64,000 nucleotides of DNA, from positions 85,451 to 149,450 of the forward strand of contig JBDTSG010000147.1 of assembly GCA_039931265.1 (NCBI GenBank), written 5' to 3'. Numbering within the stretch: the stretch's first letter is position 1; every line of letters starts with the position of its first letter. The translations under genes and the position numbers were made by a program. This stretch comes from Flavobacteriales bacterium. GTDB taxonomy: Bacteria; Bacteroidota; Bacteroidia; Flavobacteriales_F; PHOS-HE28. A model generated the notes under the pieces. The model had not been told where the DNA came from. It saw only the letters and a program-made list of their open reading frames with translations, and ran no database searches. Shown here piece by piece: positions 2,786 to 63,706 of the stretch.

Positions 2786-4104
2786 CAGTTCTGGGAAGTA
2801 TTGGGCACGTAGTAGAGCACTACGCGGTTGCTGGGAATGAAATACTGCTTGGCCACCCGTTGGATATCGGCAGGGGTAACGGCGAGATAGCGGTCCAGTT
2901 CACTGTTCACGGTCTTCGTGTCGCCGGCGAACGTGTAAGCATTGGCCAGGTTCTCGGCTACTCCCGTAATGCGGCTGTTCCCTTGAACGAATTCGGTTTC
3001 CAGTTGCACTTTCAACTTGGCCAGCTCTGTATCGCTGATCGGTTCTTTGCCCGCCCGCTCGAACTCGGCGTTCATGCTCTTTTCCAAGCTGTCCGGCTGC
3101 ACGCCCACGGCCGCTATGGCGAAGGCGATGGCCAAGCCCGGATGTTCGAAGGGCAAACTGAAGGAACCCACTACGAGCGCCTTCTCCTCTTCATCCTTCA
3201 ATCGCTTCTGCAAACGCGATGAGTTACCGTTGCTCAGCAAACGGTTCAACATGTCCACCGCATAGAAATCGTCCGTGTTCAGCGCAGGGATACGGTATGC
3301 CTGCACGACGGCCGGCAGTTGGATATTGTCCTTCACCACATCGCGCACTTCGCCGTTCATCTCCGGCTCTTTCGCTTTCACCGTTGGCACATCGTTGCCC
3401 TTCGGGATGCCCCCGAAATACTTCTTCACCAATTCCTTGGCGGCGTCCTTCTTGATGTCGCCGGCAACCACGAGCACCGCGTTGTTCGGTATGTAGTAGG
3501 TCTTGTAGAAGGCACGATAATCCGCTTCGCTCGCCGCGTTCAGGTCTTCCATGAAGCCGATGGTGGGCCACTGGTAGGGATGCACGGTGTAAGCGCGTTT
3601 CAGCACTTCGATGAGGATGCTGCCGTAGGGTTGGTTCTCGTAGCGTTGGCGGCGCTCCTCCTTCACCACTTCGCGTTGCGTATCCACGCCTTTCTGATCC
3701 ACCTTGGCGTGCAGCATACGTTCGCTCTCCAGCCACAAGCCCAATTCCAATTGGTTGCTGGGCAGCACTTCGTAGTAGTACGTGCGGTCGCCGTTGGTAT
3801 TGGCGTTCAGCACGCCACCGGCCTTCTCCACGTATTTGCTGAATTCGCCGCGTTCGATGTTCGCGGACCCCTCGAACAACAAGTGCTCGAAGAAGTGCGC
3901 GAAGCCACGGCGGTTGGCTTCCTCGTTCTTGCTGCCCACGTGGTACATCACGCTCACGCTCACGATCGGTGTGCTGTGGTCCTCGTGCAGGATCACGTGC
4001 AACCCGTTATCGATGTCGAACTCGGTGTACTCGATGGGCTTCATCTGCGCTGAGGCTGAAACGGCCAGTGCCGCCGCCAAGGGCGCCATGCTTGCTCTGT
4101 TCAT
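2785..4104 (-). CDS. M16 family zinc peptidase, catalytic-type subunit
   Basis: HxxEH inverted zincin motif (FAHFFEHLLFEG). I chose the start at MNRASMAPLAAALAVSASAQ (ATG 4102-4104), which gives a signal peptide; the 48 upstream codons of the track ORF look non-coding. Confidence 0.85.
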   Translation of the reverse strand: MNRASMAPLAAALAVSASAQMKPIEYTEFDIDNGLHVILHEDHSTPIVSVSVMYHVGSKNEEANRRGFAHFFEHLLFEGSANIERGEFSKYVEKAGGVLNANTNGDRTYYYEVLPSNQLELGLWLESERMLHAKVDQKGVDTQREVVKEERRQRYENQPYGSILIEVLKRAYTVHPYQWPTIGFMEDLNAASEADYRAFYKTYYIPNNAVLVVAGDIKKDAAKELVKKYFGGIPKGNDVPTVKAKEPEMNGEVRDVVKDNIQLPAVVQAYRIPALNTDDFYAVDMLNRLLSNGNSSRLQKRLKDEEEKALVVGSFSLPFEHPGLAIAFAIAAVGVQPDSLEKSMNAEFERAGKEPISDTELAKLKVQLETEFVQGNSRITGVAENLANAYTFAGDTKTVNSELDRYLAVTPADIQRVAKQYFIPSNRVVLYYVPNTSQN

Positions 4105-6610: not shown

Positions 6611-7423
6611 TCAGGCCTCCAGTGCTTCCTTCAACTTCCTGTGGTAGTCGGCGTACCGCGCCAAGTCGCTGTGGTGGCCTTTGGGGAAGGTGACCAGCTC
6701 GCGGTGTACGTTGGTGGGCACCAGCGCGTAGAGCTTCAACGCGCTGGCATAGGGTACCACGGTATCGCGTTGCCCGTGGAAGATCAACACCGGACACGTC
6801 ACACGGGGGATCGCCCTGTCGCTGCGGAACGGATAACGCAGCAGCAAGCGGTAAGGCAAAAGTGCGCTGTAGCTGCGCGCCACATCGATGAGGTTGGCGA
6901 ACGGCGATTCCAGTACCAGCGCGCGCGGTGTGTTCGCAGCGGCGAGGGGAACGGCAAGCCCGCTGCCCAACGATCGGCCATAGATCACGATGCGTTCCTG
7001 CGGCCAATGCTGCATGAGGTGCTTGTACCACGCCAGCGCATCGGCGTGCAGTGCTGCTTCGCTGAGGCGTCCACGGCTCTTGCCATAGCCACGCGGATCG
7101 GGCATCAGCACGCTCCAGCCCAACTGCGTGAAACGCGGGGCACGCCTTCCCCACCGGCGCACGCTCCCTGCATTGCCATGGAAGTACAAGACCACTCCTT
7201 TCGGTTCCGGAGCGGCGAACAGCAGTGCGTGCAACTTGGCGCCGTCGTCGTTCGCAATGAAGCGTTCCTCGTGGGGCGGGTGCCCGCGTTTGAACCGGAA
7301 CTGGAAGCGCTGTGGCAACCGGAAGCGGATGAAGATCATGCGCTCCTGCATTACCCAATAGAACAAGCACACCAGCGCGTACACCGCCACTAGCGCTCCT
7401 ATGAGGTAACCGATGATGATCAT
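6611..7423 (-). CDS. Alpha/beta hydrolase
   Basis: GxSxG nucleophile elbow (YGRSLGSG), HGNAG oxyanion region, and an N-terminal TM anchor MIIIGYLIGALVAVYALV. The track ORF's 149 upstream codons look non-coding. Confidence 0.8.
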   Translation of the reverse strand: MIIIGYLIGALVAVYALVCLFYWVMQERMIFIRFRLPQRFQFRFKRGHPPHEERFIANDDGAKLHALLFAAPEPKGVVLYFHGNAGSVRRWGRRAPRFTQLGWSVLMPDPRGYGKSRGRLSEAALHADALAWYKHLMQHWPQERIVIYGRSLGSGLAVPLAAANTPRALVLESPFANLIDVARSYSALLPYRLLLRYPFRSDRAIPRVTCPVLIFHGQRDTVVPYASALKLYALVPTNVHRELVTFPKGHHSDLARYADYHRKLKEALEA

Positions 7424-13180: not shown

Positions 13181-13209
13181 TCCCGCCTCTCAGGCTCACC
13201 GGTTCCAAC

Positions 13210-13240
13210 GAAGAAGGGCGGCCGTGGGCCGCCCTTCTTC
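13210..13240. terminator. Bidirectional stem-loop between convergent genes
   Basis: Perfect 14-bp inverted repeat gaagaagggcggcc (13210-13223) / ggccgcccttcttc (13227-13240) with a 3-nt loop. Confidence 0.65.
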
Positions 13241-13256
13241 GTTGTTCCCATGTTGC

Positions 13257-52968: not shown

Positions 52969-53433
52969 CTATGGATACCTTAACGGTTGGAGGTTGAACC
53001 TCACGCCTTCTTTGTGATCAGGAGGAAAGACAGGACTCTTTATGCCGAAAGGTCCTGATCCATTTCTCTGGTAGTAGTAAGCCTTAGACTCTGAAGAAAA
53101 TCGTCCGGAGCAGAGCAGTCTGAGAACCGTGCGATCATCAACGACCGATTCAACTGAAACATCGATCCAAACAGGTACTTTCTCATTGCGACACAAAAGA
53201 TCGACGACCTCTTGGTCTTTGATCAACAAGTGGCGAACACCTGCATCTTCAGGATAAACGTCGAACTGCTCTAGTTCAGGACTATCGTTCGAGATGTTGA
53301 GAAAGACGTTGTATCGAAACTCGGTAGTCAGCCTATCACTGACCATCTCTTCAGCGAACTTGAAGGCAGCATAGCTTGCCCCGAGAAGTAGGAAGCGGAA
53401 ATCAGTCTTGTTCATTACAGTTGTATCACTCAC
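52969..53433 (-). CDS. Hypothetical protein in an AT-richer segment
   Basis: The track start is GTG (53431-53433), overlapping the dihydropyrimidinase TGA (GTGA). An alternative ATG lies at 53413-53415 (MNKTDF...). No recognised family. The composition is visibly AT-richer than its neighbours. Confidence 0.5.
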   Translation of the reverse strand: MSDTTVMNKTDFRFLLLGASYAAFKFAEEMVSDRLTTEFRYNVFLNISNDSPELEQFDVYPEDAGVRHLLIKDQEVVDLLCRNEKVPVWIDVSVESVVDDRTVLRLLCSGRFSSESKAYYYQRNGSGPFGIKSPVFPPDHKEGVRFNLQPLRYP

Positions 53434-54809
53434 AGCATCCCACTCACCTTGTTCCGCTTCACGAACTGCCCGTAGCCCTTCTTGATCTTCGTCTCCCCCT
53501 TCTCAATCGCCACTTGGCCGCGCAGGATCACGGTCTTCACCTTGCCCGTGAGTTGCATGCCTTCGTAGGCGCTGTAGTCCACGTTCATGTGGTGCGTTTT
53601 CGCGCTGAGGGTGTGGCGCTCGTTGGGGTCGAGCAGGATGATGTCCGCGTCGCTGCCGATGCCGATGGTGCCTTTGCGCGGGAACATGCCGAAGATCTTC
53701 GCGGGGTTGGTGGCCGTGACCTCCACGAACTTGTTCACGGTGATGCGCTTCTTGTTCACGCCTTCGCTGAAGAGCAGTTCCATGCGATGCTCGATGGCAG
53801 GATGACCGTTGGGGATCTTCGAAAAATCGTCCTTGCCGAGCAGCTTCTTCTCCCAAGTGAAGGGGCAGTGGTCCGTGGCCACTACTTGTATGCTGCCCTG
53901 GTCGATGCCGGCCCATAGTTGGGCTTGGTCCTTCTTCTCGCGCAGGGGCGGGCTCATCACCCACTTCGCGCCATCGGCCTGTTCGTAAAGCGAGGCGTCG
54001 AGCAACAGGTATTGGATGCACGTTTCAGCGAGCACACGCTGGCCGCGCCGCGCCGCATCGCGCACGTGGTTGAGCGCGCCTTCGCAGGTCATGTGGACGA
54101 TGTACGCGGGTACGCCCGTGTGCCAAGCCATATCAGCGAAGCGGCCACTGGCCTCGGCCTCGGTGATCTCCGGCTGGCTGAGGTAGTGGTACAGCGGTGA
54201 GAGCTTGCCTTCCGCGCGGTGCTTCTGGACGAGGAAGTCGATCATGTCGCCGTTGGTGGCGTGTACCGTGACCAGTCCGCCACACTTCTTCACCTCTTGC
54301 ATCAGGCCGACCATCTGGCGGTCGTCGATCATCAGCGCGCCCTTGTACGCCATGAAGGTCTTGAAGCTGGTGATGCCTTCCTGCTCGATCATCTCCTTCA
54401 CTTCCTTCTTCGTGTCGTCGTTGAAGTCGGTGACGGCCATGTGCCAGCTGAGGTCGCCATAAAGGTTGCCCTTCATTCGGCCCTGCCATTGCTCCAACGC
54501 GTGGTGCAGGCTCTTGCCCTGTGTTTGCAGGATGAAGTCGATGACGGTGGTGGTGCCACCGTGCAACGCTGCGCGCGTGCCGGTCTCGTAGTTGTCGCTG
54601 CTGTATGTGCCCATGAAAGGCATGTCGAGATGCACGTGCGGGTCGATACCGCCGGGCAGCACAAAGAGGCCTTTCGCGTCGATCACCTGCGCGCCGTCGG
54701 CTTTCAGATCGTGTCCGATGGCCTTGACGTGTTCGCCTTCGATGAGCACGTCGGCGCGGTGGAAGTCGGCGGCGGTGACGACGGTGCCGTTCTTGATGAG
54801 GAGGCTCAT
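53430..54809 (-). CDS. hydA: Dihydropyrimidinase (D-hydantoinase-type cyclic amidohydrolase)
   Basis: GGIDPHVHLDMPF metal-binding HxH block, FKTFMAYKG (carboxylated-Lys region), VHAT/ETC blocks and ATDHCPF. Confidence 0.9.
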   Translation of the reverse strand: MSLLIKNGTVVTAADFHRADVLIEGEHVKAIGHDLKADGAQVIDAKGLFVLPGGIDPHVHLDMPFMGTYSSDNYETGTRAALHGGTTTVIDFILQTQGKSLHHALEQWQGRMKGNLYGDLSWHMAVTDFNDDTKKEVKEMIEQEGITSFKTFMAYKGALMIDDRQMVGLMQEVKKCGGLVTVHATNGDMIDFLVQKHRAEGKLSPLYHYLSQPEITEAEASGRFADMAWHTGVPAYIVHMTCEGALNHVRDAARRGQRVLAETCIQYLLLDASLYEQADGAKWVMSPPLREKKDQAQLWAGIDQGSIQVVATDHCPFTWEKKLLGKDDFSKIPNGHPAIEHRMELLFSEGVNKKRITVNKFVEVTATNPAKIFGMFPRKGTIGIGSDADIILLDPNERHTLSAKTHHMNVDYSAYEGMQLTGKVKTVILRGQVAIEKGETKIKKGYGQFVKRNKVSGML

Positions 54810-54847
54810 GGTTGCTTGGTAATGTTGGTCGGTTTGCTGTTACGGAT

Positions 54848-54875
54848 CAATTGTGCAGCAGCTTGCTGCACAATT
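54848..54875. repeat. CAATTGTGCAGC-N-GCTGCACAATT palindrome, copy A
   Basis: caattgtgcagca-gct-tgctgcacaatt, 12-bp perfect arms. It directly abuts the TGA of the DUF1016 gene (54876-54878) and is preceded by gat. Confidence 0.85.
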
Positions 54876-55985
54876 TCATTTCCGCTTCCGGGGCTTGGGT
54901 TTCTTCAGCTCCTTCTCGATGTCAGAGGTGGATGGTAACAAGCGTTGCAGCTTCTTGGGCAGTTCCGCCACGAGCTTGGTGCGCCAGTCGGAAACACCGA
55001 TGGGCTTATTGGTGGCGCGCAGTGCATAATCCACCTTGAGCTTCTTGCTGTCCTGGCATAACAGCACACCGATGGTAGGCTGATCGTCGGGGTGGCGGAG
55101 CTGTTCATCCACCGCGCTCAGATAGAAACCCATCTTGCCGACATACTCCGGCTTGAAAGCGCCCATCTTCAGTTCAATGACCACGTAACTCCGCAGGCGA
55201 ACATGATAGAACAACAGGTCGATGTAGTAGTCGTCGCCTTCCACCTCCAGGTGGAACTGTTTTCCGAGGAAAGCGAAGCCCACACCCAGTTCGATGAGGA
55301 ACTTCTGGATGTGCTCCACCAACCCTTGCTCCAATTCACGCTCGCGCGCATCCAATCCCAGCGAAAGGAAATCGAATGTGTATGGATCCTTGAGCGTTTG
55401 ATGCGCCAGGTCCGAGCGGTCAGGCGGCAACGTGCGCTTGAAGTTGGTGATCGCTCTACCATGCCGCTTATGCGCCTTGGCCGCGATCTGCATGGCCAGC
55501 ACGGAGCGGCTCCAACCGTGCTGTAGTGCTGCTGCCGCGTACCAGCGGCGATCCTCGGCCTTCTTGAGCTTGTCGAGCAGCACCAAGTTGTGTGCCCATG
55601 GCAATTGTGCAGCAGCCTGCTGCACAATTGCGATCTCGGGATACGCTTCGGCGAAAGCCCGCATGTAAAGCAGGTTGCGCGGCGAGAGGCCGCCCATCTG
55701 CGGGAACTCGGCCAGCAGGTCGGCCCCCAAGCGTTCCACCACTTTGCTGCCCCAGCCTTCCTTCCCCTGCCGATCAAGGATCTCGTGCCCGATCCGCCAA
55801 TAGAGCGCGATCAGTTCCGTATTCACCGATAGCGCCGCCTTCACTTGTGCCTTGCGGATGCGGTCTTTCAAGCCCGTCAGGAACTGTTCATAGCCAACGG
55901 GCAGTGCCGCATCGGTGGATCGCTTCGCAACTTTCCTGGACATGTCGCCAATGTAGAACAGGCTTTCCGCCGAGTGATGGACCAT
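54876..55985 (-). CDS. DUF1016 / YhcG-type PD-(D/E)XK nuclease domain protein
   Basis: N-terminal DUF1016-type helical region (LYWRIGHEILDRQ..., IVQQAAAQLPWAHN) and a C-terminal nuclease core (YYIDLLFYH...YVVIELKMG, i.e. D...ELK). Confidence 0.85.
   Translation of the reverse strand: MVHHSAESLFYIGDMSRKVAKRSTDAALPVGYEQFLTGLKDRIRKAQVKAALSVNTELIALYWRIGHEILDRQGKEGWGSKVVERLGADLLAEFPQMGGLSPRNLLYMRAFAEAYPEIAIVQQAAAQLPWAHNLVLLDKLKKAEDRRWYAAAALQHGWSRSVLAMQIAAKAHKRHGRAITNFKRTLPPDRSDLAHQTLKDPYTFDFLSLGLDARERELEQGLVEHIQKFLIELGVGFAFLGKQFHLEVEGDDYYIDLLFYHVRLRSYVVIELKMGAFKPEYVGKMGFYLSAVDEQLRHPDDQPTIGVLLCQDSKKLKVDYALRATNKPIGVSDWRTKLVAELPKKLQRLLPSTSDIEKELKKPKPRKRK
55602..55630. repeat. Same palindrome, copy B (inside the DUF1016 coding sequence)
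   Basis: caattgtgcagcagcctgctgcacaattg. On the minus strand it encodes AIVQQAAAQLP. Confidence 0.85.
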
Positions 55986-55993
55986 GGGGCGAT

Positions 55994-56022
55994 CAATTGT
56001 GCAGCAGGTTGCTGCACAATTG
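55994..56022. repeat. Same palindrome, copy C (just upstream of the DUF1016 ATG)
   Basis: caattgtgcagcaggttgctgcacaattg, preceded by gat. Including its flank gccacg, it matches the reverse complement of copy B (gccatg) with 2 mismatches over about 35 nt. Confidence 0.85.
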
Positions 56023-56106
56023 CCACGATCCGCTCCCGCTCGATCATCAGAGTTGGACGGTGATATGCCGAAACCCCTACATGACCGGCTCCAGACCGTT
56101 CAAGAT

Positions 56107-56133
56107 CAATTGTGCAGCGATCGCTGCACAATT
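56107..56133. repeat. Same palindrome, copy D (overlaps the NCS1 permease stop codon)
   Basis: caattgtgcagc-gat-cgctgcacaatt, preceded by gat. The permease TAA (56132-56134) overlaps its last 2 nt. Confidence 0.85.
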
Positions 56134-57574
56134 AGCGCCGACCCTTCATCAACAACGAATATGCAGCGCCGGACACCACGAAGCCCACGAACCACGCATA
56201 GTGGTAGAGGCCGTTGATCCATGCGGGCATCGCTTCGGGTGACACGACCCCGATCTGGGCCAAGAAGCCCGGGACATTCGGAAGAATGCCGACCAACAAA
56301 GCGATGATCGCGGCGCTATTGAATCCGCCGCCGTACGCGTAACGGCCTTTCGTGCTGTAGAGATCGTTCACGTCCAACTGCTGGCGTCTGATGAAGAAGT
56401 AGTCGACGATCATGATCCCGCCGATGGGGCCGAGCAAGCTGCTGTACGCGATGAGCCAGGTGAAGATGTAGCCGCTGGGATCCGCGATCAACTTCCACGG
56501 GAAGATGAGGATGCCGATGATGCCCGTGATGTAGCCGCCGCGCTTGAAGTCGATGCGCTTGGGCGCGAGGTTGGCAAAGTCGTTGGCGGGGCTGACGATG
56601 TTGGCCGCGATATTGGTGGCGAGCGTGCTGATGGCCACGCAGATCATGGCGATGCTCACGAGCAACTTGCTGTCGAAGCGCTCGGCTATCGCCAGCGGAT
56701 CCCAAAGGGTGGTGCCGTAGATGATGGTGGTGGCGGAAGTCACGACCACGCCGATAAAGGCGAACATCGTCATGCTCGGTGCAAGGCCGATGGCCTGCCC
56801 GCTGATCTGCGCGCGCTGGCTCTTGGCGTAACGTGTGAAGTCGGGGATGTTGAGCGATAGCGTGGCCCAGAAGCCGACCATGCCCGTGAGCGCCGGGAAG
56901 AAGAAGTTCCAGAACTCGGCGCTGGTCGCGAACTTGGAGGGTTGTGCGAGGATCGGCCCGAAACCATGCGCGGCACTGAGCGCCCACCACAGCAAGGCCA
57001 GCGCAGCGAGCGGCAGGAAGATCGCCTTCACCACGAGCAGGCGGCGGATGATCTCCACGCCGTAGTATACCACCACCATGTTCAACAACCAAAAGAGCAG
57101 GAAGGCGATCGCCGGACCCGTACCAAGACCTACCCACGACGGCAGGAATTGCGGCAGGTGGATCGCATCGCCGAACCAGACTTTCACCATTAAGTAGATC
57201 GAGTGCCCCCCGATCCACGTCTGGATCCCGAACCAACCACACGCCACGATCGCCCGCAGCATCGCCGGGATGTTCGCGCCGCGCACACCGAAGCTGGCAC
57301 GCGCGAGCACGGGGAACGGGATGCCATACTTGGCACCGGCATGGCCGTTCAGGATCATCGGCACCAGCACGATGGCGTTGCCGAGGAACACTGTTAGGAT
57401 GGCCTGCCACCAGTTCATGCCGCCCTCGATCAACGAACTGGCGAGCATGTACGTGGGAATGCACAAGCTCATGCTGATCCACAGCGCGGCGTAGTTCCAC
57501 GTGCCCCACGTGCGTTTGGCGGGCGGAACCGGCGCGAGGTCTTCGCTGTAGAGGGAGGGGTCTTCCAAAAGCAA
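56132..57574 (-). CDS. NCS1-family nucleobase:cation symporter (cytosine/uracil/hydantoin-type permease)
   Basis: 12-TM NCS1 layout with the N-terminal DLAPVPPAKRTW block. The called start is TTG (57572-57574), and no in-frame ATG lies nearby. Confidence 0.88.
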   Translation of the reverse strand: MLLEDPSLYSEDLAPVPPAKRTWGTWNYAALWISMSLCIPTYMLASSLIEGGMNWWQAILTVFLGNAIVLVPMILNGHAGAKYGIPFPVLARASFGVRGANIPAMLRAIVACGWFGIQTWIGGHSIYLMVKVWFGDAIHLPQFLPSWVGLGTGPAIAFLLFWLLNMVVVYYGVEIIRRLLVVKAIFLPLAALALLWWALSAAHGFGPILAQPSKFATSAEFWNFFFPALTGMVGFWATLSLNIPDFTRYAKSQRAQISGQAIGLAPSMTMFAFIGVVVTSATTIIYGTTLWDPLAIAERFDSKLLVSIAMICVAISTLATNIAANIVSPANDFANLAPKRIDFKRGGYITGIIGILIFPWKLIADPSGYIFTWLIAYSSLLGPIGGIMIVDYFFIRRQQLDVNDLYSTKGRYAYGGGFNSAAIIALLVGILPNVPGFLAQIGVVSPEAMPAWINGLYHYAWFVGFVVSGAAYSLLMKGRR

Positions 57575-62260: not shown

Positions 62261-63706
62261 ATGGAACAGCCCTTGTTCCAAGCCGTGCAAGCAGAAGCTG
62301 AAGAGCGTGCCATACCGGCCTATGCGATCGGCGGTTACGTCCGCGACCTGATCTTGGGGCGCGCATGCAAGGACATCGACTTCGTTGTGGAGGGGGATGG
62401 CATTTCAGTGGCTGCGGCGGTGGCGAAAAGGCTTGGTGCAGGGCAGGTGCATGTGTTCAAGAACTTCGGTACGGCGATGTTCATGCTTGGCGAATTGCAG
62501 GTTGAATTCGTTGGCGCGCGGAAGGAGAGCTACAGCCGCGACAGCCGGAAACCGGCAGTGGTACCCGGAACGATCAAGGATGATCAGGAGCGCCGGGATT
62601 TCACCGTGAACGCCTTGGCGATCTCCCTCAACCCAGGCAGCGCGGGTGCTTTGGTGGATCCGTTCGGTGGCATCCTCGACCTGGAACGCGGCATCCTCCG
62701 CACTCCGCTCGATCCGGACATCACCTTCAGCGATGACCCTTTGCGCATGCTGCGCGCCGTGCGCTTCGCTGCGCAATTGGGGTTCACCATCGAACCGGGA
62801 AGCTTCGATGCTATCCGGAGGAACGCCGCGCGTCTCGACATCATCAGCGCGGAACGTATCCACGGCGAACTGAACAAGATCATCATGACGCAGGTGCCAA
62901 GCGAAGGGTTCCTGCTGCTGCGTGACAGTGGCCTGCTCGTCCGCTTCTTCCCTGAGTTCCTTGAGTTGCAAGGTGCCGAGGAGAAGTTCGGGATCGGGCA
63001 CAAGGACAATTTCTACCACACACTGCAAGTGTTGGACAACGTGTGCGCGAAAAGCAATGATCTGTGGTTGCGCTGGGCCGCCATCCTTCACGATATCGCC
63101 AAGCCCAAGACCAAGCGCTTCGACCCGGAGATCGGCTGGACTTTCCATGGGCACGAGGACAAGGGCGCGCGGATGGTACCGACCATCTTCCGCCGGATGA
63201 AGTTGCCGCTGGACGACCAGATGCGTTTCGTGCAGAAGCTGGTCGCATTGCACTTACGGCCGATCGCCCTGACCAAAGAGATCGTTACCGATAGCGCGGT
63301 CCGCCGGTTGCTCTTCGATGCCGGTGACGACATCGATGCGCTGATGATCCTGTGCCAAGCGGATATCACCAGCAAGAACGAGAAGAAGAAGGAACGCTAC
63401 CTGCGCAATTACGCGTTGGTGCTGCGCAAGCTGGCGGAAGTGGAAGAGAAAGACCGGGTGCGCAATTTCCAACCTCCGATCACCGGACAGGATGTGATGG
63501 CCGCGTTCGGCATTTCACCCAGCAAGTACATCGGCGACATAAAGACGGTGATCAAGGATGCGATCCTGGACGGGAAGATCCACAACGATCGTGCGCAGGC
63601 GTGGGCGCTGATGCTGGAAACCGGGAGGAGCCTCGGCTTGGAACCGTTGGCCGGTATGGAGGTCCCGGTTGCGGACAACGGGCAGACGAAGGACGAGGGG
63701 CAATGA
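62261..63706 (+). CDS. tRNA nucleotidyltransferase (CCA-adding) / poly(A) polymerase family protein with HD domain
   Basis: Head domain GGYVRDLILGR...DIDFVV, RDFTVNA, PLRMLRAVRFAAQLGF, and the HD region HDIAKP. I chose the start at MEQPLFQAV (ATG 62261). Confidence 0.85.
   Translation: MEQPLFQAVQAEAEERAIPAYAIGGYVRDLILGRACKDIDFVVEGDGISVAAAVAKRLGAGQVHVFKNFGTAMFMLGELQVEFVGARKESYSRDSRKPAVVPGTIKDDQERRDFTVNALAISLNPGSAGALVDPFGGILDLERGILRTPLDPDITFSDDPLRMLRAVRFAAQLGFTIEPGSFDAIRRNAARLDIISAERIHGELNKIIMTQVPSEGFLLLRDSGLLVRFFPEFLELQGAEEKFGIGHKDNFYHTLQVLDNVCAKSNDLWLRWAAILHDIAKPKTKRFDPEIGWTFHGHEDKGARMVPTIFRRMKLPLDDQMRFVQKLVALHLRPIALTKEIVTDSAVRRLLFDAGDDIDALMILCQADITSKNEKKKERYLRNYALVLRKLAEVEEKDRVRNFQPPITGQDVMAAFGISPSKYIGDIKTVIKDAILDGKIHNDRAQAWALMLETGRSLGLEPLAGMEVPVADNGQTKDEGQ

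Follow-up and report, generated by a model that had tools for sequence, protein, structure and literature searches.

Why should a nuclease gene stand between copies of a palindrome that is also embedded, in frame, in its own coding sequence? The question is posed by a locus in the window, by which we mean the whole stretch of Flavobacteriales DNA analyzed here (64,000 nt), where a DUF1016/YhcG gene lies between the genes for an NCS1 permease and a dihydropyrimidinase. The first-pass annotation of this DNA had considered that the palindrome is the recombination or target site of a selfish, homing-like nuclease cassette, that the extragenic copies derive from the gene-internal sequence, or that the hairpins are RNA processing or stability signals insulating a guest gene.

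Four palindrome copies at the nuclease locus

A pattern search of the 64-kb window detected four perfect copies of AATTGTGCAGC-N4/5-GCTGCACAATT, all inside 1.3 kb, and none outside this locus. With the looser pattern CAATTGTGCAGC-N3-5-GCTGCACAATT, the matches were located at 54848-54875 (copy A), 55602-55630 (copy B), 55994-56022 (copy C), and 56107-56133 (copy D). None of 100 shuffles contained any match to the pattern, and the 12-mer half-site with up to one mismatch was absent from the rest of the window, except for one unrelated single half-site at 62768. The four perfect-armed copies of the first-pass annotation were borne out by this search and its shuffle control. The arms flanking a 3-nt loop were perfect over 12 nt in copy A and 13 nt in copy C; those of copy B extended to 18 nt with 94% complementarity, including a perfect 14-bp stem, and copy D was a fully palindromic 26-mer with the center GATC. 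The GATC found beside the copies has no meaning, as this motif is 2.7-fold over-represented window-wide and its local density is average. All four copies were predicted to fold as RNA with minimum free energies of -20 to -27 kcal/mol (-23.3 kcal/mol for copy A) and z-scores of -3.3 to -5.1.

The nuclease gene occupies 54876-55943 on the reverse strand and encodes 355 amino acids from the ATG at 55943, a start that is used by public gene calls and agrees with the homologues (P0001, also of 355 aa, is 100% identical), whereas the longest open reading frame extends to 55985 (369 aa). Copy A begins immediately beyond the nuclease stop codon TGA (54876-54878), reads TGA-AATTGTGCAGCAAGCTGCTGCACAATTGATC on the gene strand, and ends about 35 nt from the dihydropyrimidinase ATG. 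Copy B lies in frame within the coding sequence, on the same strand, and encodes IVQQAAAQL in the PF17761 part, just ahead of a conserved PW motif. Copy D overlaps the stop codon TAA (56132-56134) of the NCS1 permease gene (56132-57574, reverse strand). The coordinates agree with the earlier placement of A, B, and D. Copy C, which lies in the nuclease gene's 5' leader, repeats B in inverted orientation; the two have the 4-nt flank GCCA in common, and C is identical to the reverse complement of B over CAATTGTGCAGCAGG-Y-TGCTGCACAATTGCCA save for a loop base, so that the earlier count of two mismatches in about 35 nt was about right. The claim that C ends a few nucleotides before the nuclease ATG holds for the first in-frame ATG (55985), which is 8 nt away, but not for the start supported by public calls and homologues, from which C is about 50 nt upstream.

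The nuclease and its predicted fold

The window protein belongs, by its profile matches, to the DUF1016/YhcG family (COG4804). It matched the Pfam profiles PF17761 (E = 5e-42; 143.7 bits against a gathering cut-off of 32.8) and PF06250 (E = 9e-64; 214.5 bits against 32.5), and its translation contains the nuclease motif E...D...E-(I/L/V)-K, with catalytic-type residues at E218 (ELGVGF), D242 (IDLLFY), and E257-L258-K259 (VVIELK). E218, D242, L258, and K259 were invariant in both alignments inspected (A1 and A3). The motif was described by Kosinski et al. 2005 (PMC1189080), who placed YhcG beside DUF91/NucS and archaeal Holliday-junction resolvases. The PADLOC profile of PDC-S02 was also matched over residues 13-349 (6e-149), which makes the nuclease a phage-defence candidate, PDC being a candidate class only.

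An AlphaFold2 model of moderate quality (pLDDT 64) places the hairpin-encoded peptide in a short helix between helices 88-100 and 116-125. In Foldseek comparisons with this model, the nuclease domain weakly matched EndoMS/NucS, MGME1, and Cas4 by fold, and the N-terminal domain gave no significant fold match and no recognizable nucleic-acid-binding fold; a profile search of PDB sequences with the nuclease returned nothing relevant. Members of the family occur in E. coli K-12, phages, plasmids, restriction-modification loci, and defence islands.

Base pairing at the internal hairpin throughout the family

A sample of 144 unique DUF1016 homologues was gathered with peptide patterns of the C-terminal nuclease domain, which are blind to the palindrome. 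At the position of copy B, at least 10 of 12 Watson-Crick pairs were formed in 127 of the 144 genes, and 49 were perfect; a control zone in the same 144 genes reached the threshold in 17 cases and was never perfect. When 113 sequences were aligned without gaps, 92.8% of the cells were paired against 67.6% in shuffles, and 256 double-sided changes were observed where 56 were expected. The covariation extended to all 12 stem pairs, and slid registers were only about 33% paired. G-U pairs made up about 2% of the alignment cells and unpaired positions 7%. Nearly all genes retained the hairpin, even where protein identity was as low as about 30%, and comparable hairpins were rare elsewhere within the same genes.

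The peptide, on the other hand, varied with the stem (for example, IVQQLVGQI, IVVSLIRQL, ICQTLSGKL, and ILPQVVEE), and in variants with a 4-nt loop the DNA palindrome was kept while the peptide was altered (NCAAAAAQL, IVQQVLHNL). Synonymous codon resampling yielded 5.7 of 12 pairs compared with the 10.9 observed, and predicted 0.02 perfect hairpins where 45 were present. The resampling and the 4-nt-loop variants together exclude an explanation at the level of the peptide. It is base pairing, and not the peptide, that is conserved at a fixed codon position before the PW motif in the helical N-terminal domain.

The palindrome is a hairpin-forming nucleic-acid element, its stem about 12 bp long and its loop 3 nt, and an old, integral part of DUF1016/YhcG genes, of which copy B is the instance in the window. 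The question whether the palindromic codon choice is peculiar to this copy is answered in the negative by the covarying hairpin throughout the family. Some DUF1016 genes carried in-frame arrays of 2-6 hairpins, and co-resident paralogues at one locus bore different hairpin variants. The yhcG gene of E. coli K-12 contains three such hairpins, and a perfect copy lies 16 nt beyond its stop codon.

A wobble test of the sense strand gave no support for an RNA structure, since inner-stem mismatches of the A·C type exceeded those of the G·T type (17 versus 3, or about 12 versus 3 independent events); the corresponding wobble reading of the antisense strand (about 12 versus 3 independent events) is confounded by codon constraints. 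Rfam covariance models applied to 54700-56300 at E values up to 10 produced only two matches, both to snoRNAs and both at chance level (E = 4.5 and 9.5). The literature searched on DUF1016, YhcG, PF06250, COG4804, PDC-S02, and coding palindromes yielded no account of the palindrome, and the one literature sequence match was an unrelated mutagenesis primer. The DUF1016 hairpin appears to be undescribed in Rfam and in the literature searched.

Distribution of the exact palindrome

The exact palindrome occurred 125 times in 119 stretches from genomes of many phyla, with no genome record repeated among the 119 stretches listed. Eighty-two copies were positioned within a DUF1016 gene at the canonical site, and all in-gene copies were in such genes (82/82); 13 more adjoined a DUF1016 gene. 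About 27-30 copies were orphans, with a DUF1016 gene absent from the 8-kb stretch around them, and these were mostly intergenic, often close behind the end of a gene or between two convergent ones. Both loop orientations were common among otherwise identical palindromes (AGGCT/AGCCT, AGCTT/AAGCT, and AGGTT/AACCT). Many DUF1016 gene fragments stopped at the palindrome, and many PADLOC PDC-S02 models spanned only up to about residue 110-130.

Explanations of the palindrome as a REP-like high-copy repeat, as a chance occurrence, or as a side effect of peptide conservation are very improbable. Although it is short, palindromic, and partly extragenic like REPs, the window holds no further copies, the shuffles gave no match, and the 119 listed stretches belong to different genome records, so a generic high-copy repeat is ruled out. 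The association with DUF1016 genes in many phyla is overwhelming, contrary to the repeat unlinked to these genes that the first-pass annotation had named as its own refutation. As for the peptide, its block is indeed conserved in PF17761, but synonymous resampling almost never gives the hairpin and the peptides differ wherever the stem differs.

Flanking copies of a gene's own hairpin variant were found at only 2 of the 144 independently sampled loci, which was not above a permutation control. At L240, the distinct variant of the gene recurs downstream of it. Such flanks are accordingly not a family-wide rule, and an explanation based on bracketing cannot cover the whole family because they are so rare.

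An old cassette upstream of the dihydropyrimidinase gene

The dihydropyrimidinase gene (53430-54809, reverse strand) is the conserved right-hand neighbor in all related loci. In relatives with an 89-90% identical dihydropyrimidinase, the permease gene is followed by the dihydropyrimidinase gene with nothing between, which confirms that the nuclease gene interrupts this junction in the window. Relatives with dihydropyrimidinases 89-92% identical differ in whether they have the cassette. The two independent empty junctions contained no palindrome, where a single one had been anticipated, and a pre-existing target site is thereby excluded. Directly upstream of the dihydropyrimidinase gene, the cassette was found in four lineages with 66-82% protein identity between carriers; its stay at one place in lineages so diverged indicates that it is old and argues against a recent homing event.

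The extragenic copies were kept at fixed places against stop codons in L280-285, L111, L079, and L289, although the surrounding DNA has diverged. L280, L111, L079, and L289 each have a palindrome at the position of copy A, unchanged amid flanks that have diverged, and the overlap of copy D with the permease stop codon recurred in L280 and L111, whose permeases are only about 45% identical to that of the window; copy C is an extra one, missing from both. In L289, all three extragenic copies carried a compensated GTCC/GGAC variant and the internal hairpin had decayed. A search with hmmsearch --max of 16 loci, including the window, detected no coding remnant around the flanking copies, which excludes that they are remnants of decayed DUF1016 genes.

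In summary, copies A, C, and D are lineage-specific duplicates of the internal hairpin, conserved and changing in concert, and the hairpin-gene-hairpin cassette is an old insertion that a Flavobacteriales lineage carries in an operon for pyrimidine catabolism, directly upstream of the dihydropyrimidinase gene. Of the possibilities raised at the outset, the origin of the extragenic copies from gene-internal sequence is supported, as the internal hairpin is ancestral and family-wide, the flanks are rare (2/144), and C and B have GCCA in common. The selfish cassette stands as far as a unit present or absent in close relatives is concerned, but its target site and its recent homing do not.

Comparison with known systems

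The locus resembles a REPtron, in which a RAYT gene is accompanied by REPs, in that a nuclease-type gene is flanked by matching hairpin palindromes (D and C upstream, A downstream) whose variants differ between related elements, and in that the arrangement is conserved in relatives. However, RAYT is an HUH/Y1 enzyme and the window gene encodes a PD-(D/E)XK protein, REPs are dispersed in tens to hundreds whereas the palindrome occurs only at the gene within 64 kb, and RAYT genes have no REP in their own coding sequence. Identity with REPtrons is excluded by the lack of a Y1 HUH transposase and by the palindrome not being dispersed, in the 64 kb or among the 119 listed stretches.

Perfect or near-perfect inverted repeats that are translated in frame, with concerted arms and a tolerated peptide, are known from Rickettsia (Ogata et al. 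2000 and 2002, as cited in PMC4316617) and from the mitochondria of Nematomorpha (PMC6649704). They are lineage-specific and inhabit many unrelated genes, unlike the DUF1016 hairpin, which is single, short, and ancestral to one family, at one position, in many phyla and with extragenic copies. A mobile palindrome of the Rickettsia type is ruled out by the confinement of coding copies to DUF1016 genes (82/82).

A gene unit bounded by hairpins, with structure conserved above sequence, is also a feature of IS200/IS605 ends and of integron attC sites, but the window has the same palindrome at both ends, and there was no evidence of a second insertion site. No TnpA, TnpB, or IntI was seen among the immediate neighbors, which are catabolic genes. 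IS200/IS605 is excluded because the sole gene between the hairpins is DUF1016 and the ends are identical rather than different LE and RE hairpins, and an attC cassette because the palindrome has no GTTRRRY core and the neighbors scanned are catabolic.

In type III toxin-antitoxin systems (ToxIN) and in Cas6 with CRISPR repeats, a nuclease is likewise genetically coupled to structured repeats of its own specificity, arrays included; their repeats lie outside the gene as non-coding RNA, and their enzymes are endoribonucleases of other folds, whereas the DUF1016 unit lies inside the coding sequence. Coding-region palindromic sites that cooperate with outside sites are further exemplified by lac O2 in lacZ and gal OI in galE. 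These operators differ in having a separate repressor, a fixed spacing, and no family-wide compensating changes, while the window locus mixes 4-nt and 5-nt centers. The half-site AATTGTGCAGC resembles AATTGTGAGC, the half-site of the symmetric lac operator.

Possible role of the hairpin

With a probability of about 0.4, as judged from the linkage between hairpin and gene, we propose that the hairpin is a cognate stem-loop or cruciform read by its own nuclease, serving as a restraint in cis whose dose is set by extra copies. It would be the recognition element of its own gene product, which is akin to Holliday-junction resolvases and NucS. This nuclease would read a stem-loop or extruded cruciform rather than a double-stranded operator of fixed spacing, in keeping with the coexistence of 4-nt and 5-nt centers within one locus. 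In cis, the hairpin would restrain a potentially toxic, defence-associated nuclease by autoregulation or sequestration, and leader or trailer copies and in-gene tandem arrays would provide a higher dose of the element. Against this stand the rarity of own-variant flanks in the family, the N-terminal domain with its lack of a recognizable nucleic-acid-binding fold, the orphan exact copies, which indicate that the hairpin can exist, and perhaps work, without the protein nearby, and the ability of template switching to keep palindromes perfect without selection. Quite unlikely, in our estimation, are DUF1016/YhcG genes as one-gene, self-contained modules in which the hairpin, as RNA in the gene's transcript or as a cruciform extruded from its DNA, binds and silences the nuclease or marks self, like a built-in antitoxin, and sets the nuclease free when phage infection makes transcription or DNA topology collapse; the co-diversification of hairpin and protein specificity in such modules would explain the covarying stems, the paralogue variants, the in-gene arrays, and the leader and trailer copies.

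Possible, yet on the whole doubtful, is a nuclease-independent element of the operon transcript, that is, generic mRNA stabilizers, processing sites, or pause sites for the ribosome or RNA polymerase, with the flanks insulating the guest gene, thereby preserving expression of the permease and the dihydropyrimidinase despite the insertion, and the internal copy limiting translation of the nuclease domain. The stable RNA folding of all four copies favors it, as do the flanking copies, which in all related lineages abut the stop codons of both the nuclease gene and the gene upstream of it, the post-stop copy of E. coli, and the orphan copies just past gene ends or between convergent genes. A generic stabilizer, however, needs neither one identical sequence per locus nor concerted compensated change, the sense strand does not favor G-U wobble, and perfect Watson-Crick triloop stems are more typical of DNA palindromes. 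Intrinsic terminators are excluded, the terminator scan having reported none of the four copies, none of which is followed by a T-run (gene-strand tails, GATCCGTAAC for A and GATCTTGAAC for D). The RNA signals suggested in the first-pass annotation are retained as a rival, with no copy resembling a terminator and no tolerance of G-U among the sense-strand mismatches of the stem.

That the hairpins are the ends or crossover sites of a selfish nuclease cassette, through excision and insertion, homing-like spread after cleavage, or a B-C inversion switch, is unlikely. The presence or absence of the cassette among close relatives would fit, its boundaries coincide with hairpins that the empty sites lack, and the permease of the window has been replaced with its stop codon still overlapping a hairpin. 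Fragments and PDC-S02 models that end near the palindrome would fit as well, and in a few gene pairs, namely L143/L149 and L127/L181 only, identity drops from 80-95% to 40-50% at residues of about 100-110. DUF1016 genes are moreover enriched beside genes targeted by programmed inversions (PMC9881135). On the other side, this lineage has a single insertion site in which the cassette is old, the empty sites offer no target, and they do not look like deletions produced by recombination between the flanks, from which a single hairpin should remain. In most of the family, the internal hairpin is the only one and has no partner site, and a systematic two-segment test put the best breakpoints mainly at residues 130-160 and 270-300 rather than at the hairpin (106-114). 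The identities of the N- and C-terminal parts correlate at 0.78. A hydrolytic PD-(D/E)XK nuclease is not known to perform strand transfer on its own.

A functionless, self-perpetuating palindrome, by which a quasi-palindrome that arose in a permissive inter-helix segment of the ancestral gene is kept perfect by intrastrand template switching, with changes in either arm transferred to the other so as to mimic covariation, is improbable. Arm-to-arm switching would yield the two loop orientations that are both common, the hairpin segment tolerates large in-frame insertions, and perfect palindromes persist in gene fragments and at orphan sites, although those in fragments were found by an exact-match search and are biased evidence for this model. 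Coding palindromes with concerted arms, reported from Nematomorpha mitochondria (PMC6649704), point the same way. Neutrality is opposed by the near-universal retention of the hairpin (127/144 versus 17/144 in the control zone) down to about 30% protein identity and by the rarity of comparable hairpins elsewhere in the same genes, and it leaves unexplained the fixed stop-adjacent extra copies and the common compensated variant of a locus.

Implications for the DUF1016 family

The DUF1016/YhcG nucleases are very widespread. Pairing that is conserved by compensating changes across many bacterial phyla and viral contigs, and that dictates the amino acids in part of the protein, is a rare constraint; this nucleic-acid pairing largely accounts for the peptide block by which PF17761 is in part defined, and palindromes at the internal site may explain many fragmentary DUF1016 gene calls. 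The hairpin provides the first concrete handle on the DUF1016 target, a defined 27-nt stem-loop or cruciform, and it is readily testable in E. coli K-12, where yhcG has both internal and post-stop copies. If the hairpin is the cognate site of the protein, it would represent a new way to couple a nuclease with its regulator or substrate; if template switching alone maintains it, bacteria would offer a striking example of a coding palindrome that perpetuates itself.

Palindrome copies at the window locus

The palindrome AATTGTGCAGC-N4/5-GCTGCACAATT occurred four times in the window and in none of 100 dinucleotide-preserving shuffles of it, which bears out the four copies reported in the first-pass annotation; no further copy was found in the 64-kb window with one mismatch allowed per half-site. 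Their positions relative to a DUF1016/YhcG nuclease gene (54876-55943 or 55985, minus strand), located between an NCS1 permease gene (56132-57574, minus strand) and a dihydropyrimidinase gene (53430-54809, minus strand), also agreed with that annotation: copy A (54848-54875) begins immediately 3' of the nuclease TGA, copy B (55602-55630) is in frame in the nuclease gene and codes for IVQQAAAQL, copy C (55994-56022) lies within the nuclease leader, and copy D (56107-56133) overlaps the permease TAA. RNA folding energies of the four copies were -20 to -27 kcal/mol, none was followed by a terminator-like T-run, and an Rfam search of the palindrome region gave no match. The GATC beside all four copies is not special, because GATC is over-represented 2.7 times window-wide (638 occurrences, where base composition predicts 234). 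Apart from the palindrome, the window's strongest inverted repeat is an unrelated perfect hairpin with 18-nt arms, CAACGAAGAAGGGCGGCC-N3-GGCCGCCCTTCTTCGTTG (13206-13244).

The nuclease matched both Pfam PF17761 and PF06250 and, in PADLOC, the phage-defence candidate PDC-S02, many models of which span only the N-terminal part to about residue 110-130; no NCBIfam model was found for it. Membership of the DUF1016/YhcG family and of the PDC-S02 candidate class describes the gene, not the hairpin. In an AlphaFold2 model of moderate confidence (pLDDT 64), the hairpin-encoded peptide forms a short helix that lies between two others in an all-helical N-terminal domain. A weak resemblance of the nuclease domain to EndoMS/NucS, MGME1 and Cas4 agrees with the placement of YhcG beside DUF91/NucS and archaeal Holliday-junction resolvases (Kosinski et al. 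2005; PMC1189080). DUF1016 genes are also reported as neighbours of restriction-modification loci with programmed inversions (odds ratio 17; PMC9881135). No mention of the palindrome was found in the searched literature, including these two papers.

The exact palindrome in other genomes

A scan of one genome per species (596 Gb) retrieved at least 119 stretches containing the exact palindrome. The matches listed came from Acidobacteriota, Bacteroidota, Actinomycetota, Pseudomonadota, Cyanobacteria, Chlamydiota, Verrucomicrobiota, Planctomycetota, Bacillota and others. In this sample, chosen by exact sequence, 82 of 125 palindromes among the matches listed lay inside a DUF1016 gene at the position of copy B and 13 of 125 adjoined one, confirming the co-occurrence that the first-pass annotation had proposed to check; for about 27-30 of the 125, the surrounding 8-kb stretch contained no DUF1016 gene. 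The encoded proteins were 30-60% identical to the window nuclease, with identical palindrome arms and freely differing flanking codons. The DNA palindrome was kept and the peptide altered in 4-nt-loop variants (NCAAAAAQLPW in a chlamydial genome, IVQQVLHNLPW in an alphaproteobacterial genome), which indicates a nucleic-acid constraint.

Orphan exact copies were mostly intergenic, often between convergent genes or shortly past gene ends; they carry no weight in the interpretation, since a few chance matches are expected, hairpins with 11-bp stems being common in genomes. Three of them, in stretches without a DUF1016 gene (comparison loci L025 2663, L076 587 and L083 654), have common conserved intergenic flanks in different metagenome-assembled genomes. 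A conserved double hairpin of Acidobacteriaceae, ATTGTCGTGAC-gct-GTCACGACAATTG plus the exact window palindrome (L001 ~6940-6994, L013 ~1815-1869, L088 ~275-330), follows DUF1016 genes at a distance of about 70-100 nt, and in L013 no such gene is nearby; the ATTGTCGTGAC-gct-GTCACGACAATTG stem also occurs within a distant viral DUF1016 gene (L266).

A covarying hairpin within DUF1016 genes

An independent sample of 80 metagenomic and 80 viral-contig loci was drawn by peptide patterns of the C-terminal nuclease domain (ELGxGF[AS][FY][VLI]G and [KR]DPYx[FL][DE]F[LV]), independently of the palindrome, and the DNA at the motif position, just before the conserved PW motif, was extracted under a protein alignment. 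Nearly all of these genes carried their own perfect or near-perfect hairpin there, with stem and peptide differing correspondingly (AATTGTCCAAC..GTTGGACAAAT with IVQQLVGQI, AATTGTCGTATCACTGATACGACAATT with IVVSLIRQL, CAATTTGCCAGACACTGTCTGGCAAATTG with ICQTLSGKL, AATTCTTCCACAAGTTGTGGAAGAAT with ILPQVVEE); the window's exact variant was present in only 1 of the 160 loci. Among 144 unique genes, the best hairpin of the canonical zone had at least 10 of 12 Watson-Crick pairs in 127 and was perfect in 49, compared with 17 and 0, respectively, in a control zone of the same genes, pairing being somewhat inflated by the search of a 340-nt zone. A 3-nt loop was found in 132 of the 144.

In a gapless alignment of 39 columns and 113 distinct sequences, whose pairing is somewhat inflated by the same search, 92.8% of cells were paired vs 67.6% after shuffling, and double-sided (compensatory) changes numbered 256 vs 56. 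All 12 stem pairs covaried, and registers slid by 1-3 columns fell to about 33% paired. That the signal is real and tied to position follows from the control zones and from the alignment-anchored extraction. When the same peptides were synonymously resampled with the codon usage of each gene itself, the mean fell from 10.9 observed Watson-Crick pairs of 12 to 5.7, and perfect hairpins from 45 to 0.02; therefore, protein-level constraint cannot explain the palindrome and was ruled out as its cause. To a large extent, pairing dictates the peptide block that helps to define PF17761. Palindromic codon choice, raised in the first-pass annotation as a possible peculiarity of the window copy, is a family rule.

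Some genes contained in-frame arrays of 2-6 hairpin units (L005, L134, L158, L130). The second DUF1016 gene of L079 and L280, a paralogue about 3 kb from the cassette formed by the nuclease gene and its hairpins (L079 3290-3560; also L280 8775-8875), carries an in-frame array of four different units of the form AATTC-xxxx-ACGC-loop-GCGT-xxxx-GAATT, and variants differ between co-resident paralogues. In E. coli K-12 (L286), yhcG contains three hairpins of the CAGAC/GTCTG type, and a fourth, perfect copy follows its stop by 16 nt, ahead of convergent nanQ. The ncRNA G0-10703 is listed as divergent from yhcG, with a 128-bp antisense overlap with its 5' UTR (PMC7967276); this ncRNA does not reach the yhcG hairpins.

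In one group of viral-contig DUF1016 genes (L265, L273-L277), a second strong hairpin, TCGAGGCGGCGCG-N4-CGCGCCGCCTCGA, lies between positions +1 and +110 of the gene, at or close to the 5' edge of the part that aligns with the window protein. Many DUF1016 gene calls or fragments end at or near the hairpin (L014, L024, L062, L070, L106, L112, L113), which could reflect palindrome breakage or recombination, or problems of assembly and gene calling caused by the palindrome.

Extragenic copies in related loci

The window's Flavobacteriales lineage is known from metagenome-assembled genomes. The nuclease gene lies directly upstream of the dihydropyrimidinase gene in orthologous loci L280-285, L111 and L079. 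Identity to the window is 80% for the nuclease and 89% for the dihydropyrimidinase of L280-285, and the nuclease is 78% identical in L111 and 83% in L079. All of these loci have palindromes at the same three sites: across the permease stop, within the gene and immediately 3' of the nuclease stop. Aligned four ways, the 3' junction shows ATGAAATTGT[G/C]CAGC...GCTG[C/G]ACAATTG as an invariant island, around which the coding and intergenic DNA has diverged. A fourth lineage (L289/L290; nuclease 66%, dihydropyrimidinase 91% identical) has two upstream copies and one after the stop, all of the compensated variant GTCC/GGAC, indicating that copies within one locus evolve in concert; its internal hairpin has decayed (peptide PIEQFVMQLPW), so extragenic copies can outlast internal loss.

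In two further lineages (L291/292 and L293/294; dihydropyrimidinase 89-90% identical), the permease is followed directly by dihydropyrimidinase, and neither junction holds a palindrome, although a single one had been expected at an empty site. The hairpins are thus part of the cassette and not its target site, so that of the earlier proposal of a selfish cassette with a palindromic target, the association with the cassette stands and the target does not. The flanking copies were also considered as DUF1016 gene remnants, and this was rejected. Among the 144 loci, flanking copies of a gene's own variant were found only in L120 and L240, not above the permutation control; L121 and L191 have other upstream hairpins of variant type, and exact-palindrome flanking copies stand beside genes whose internal hairpin is a variant or has decayed in L001, L093, L097 and L105.

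The window permease (480 aa) is about 45% identical to permeases at the same position (L280, L287, L291, L293), which are 551-565 aa long and share 71-77% identity among themselves. The neighbouring aminotransferase and dihydropyrimidinase are 93% and 89% identical, indicating that the window permease gene was replaced; its TAA nonetheless overlaps a hairpin copy. In related Flavobacteriales, small PDDEXK_3 (PF13366) genes are inserted between genes of the same pyrimidine-catabolism operon (L287 4926-5312 and 6255-6668; L293 4895-5326), which apparently has received small nuclease genes repeatedly. L287, a relative that lacks the DUF1016 gene, has a small unannotated ORF between permease and dihydropyrimidinase and, in the same intergenic region, a hairpin with a 32-bp perfect stem and 4-nt loop (3297-3364).

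Possible role of the hairpin

Across the family, the hairpin occupies a fixed place in the coding sequence and is conserved by compensating changes; its genetic linkage to the gene is tight, and extra copies are conserved at gene boundaries, change in concert and are absent from empty sites. We tentatively propose, at a probability of about 0.4, that the resolvase/NucS-like nuclease encoded by the gene would recognise the hairpin as its cognate element, reading it as a stem-loop or cruciform in DNA or RNA, and that in cis the hairpin may restrain or regulate the nuclease. Recognition of the stem is preferred because one locus can have both 4-nt and 5-nt centres, covariation extends to every stem position, and nucleases of this class work on DNA that is branched or distorted.

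An RNA stabiliser or insulator that works without the protein appears rather unlikely. The stem does not tolerate G-U pairs on the sense strand, a mild argument against RNA structure of that strand; among stem mismatches, from few independent events, A·C was commoner than G·T. Use of the hairpin as a recombination or mobility site is improbable, and slightly more so is a palindrome of no function that template switching keeps perfect. Such a palindrome fits poorly with a hairpin retained almost universally, even at 30% protein identity, and with where the extragenic copies sit and how they change in concert.

Several known systems are similar to this arrangement, yet for each one open to comparison a defining feature is missing here. 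Enzyme class and copy number differ from REP/RAYT; no TnpA, TnpB, IntI or core sites of IS200/IS605 elements and integron cassettes were seen; unlike Rickettsia-type mobile coding palindromes, the hairpin was found in a single family and is ancestral; intrinsic terminators would have the T-run that the window hairpins lack; and Rfam families do not match the window hairpin region. Neither Rfam nor the searched literature describes a covarying coding hairpin shared by a whole nuclease family in which some members are bracketed by cognate copies. The first-pass annotation was right in its observation and partly supported in its interpretation, and the finding is larger than it had supposed, because the palindromic codon choice is a property of the family and not of the window gene.
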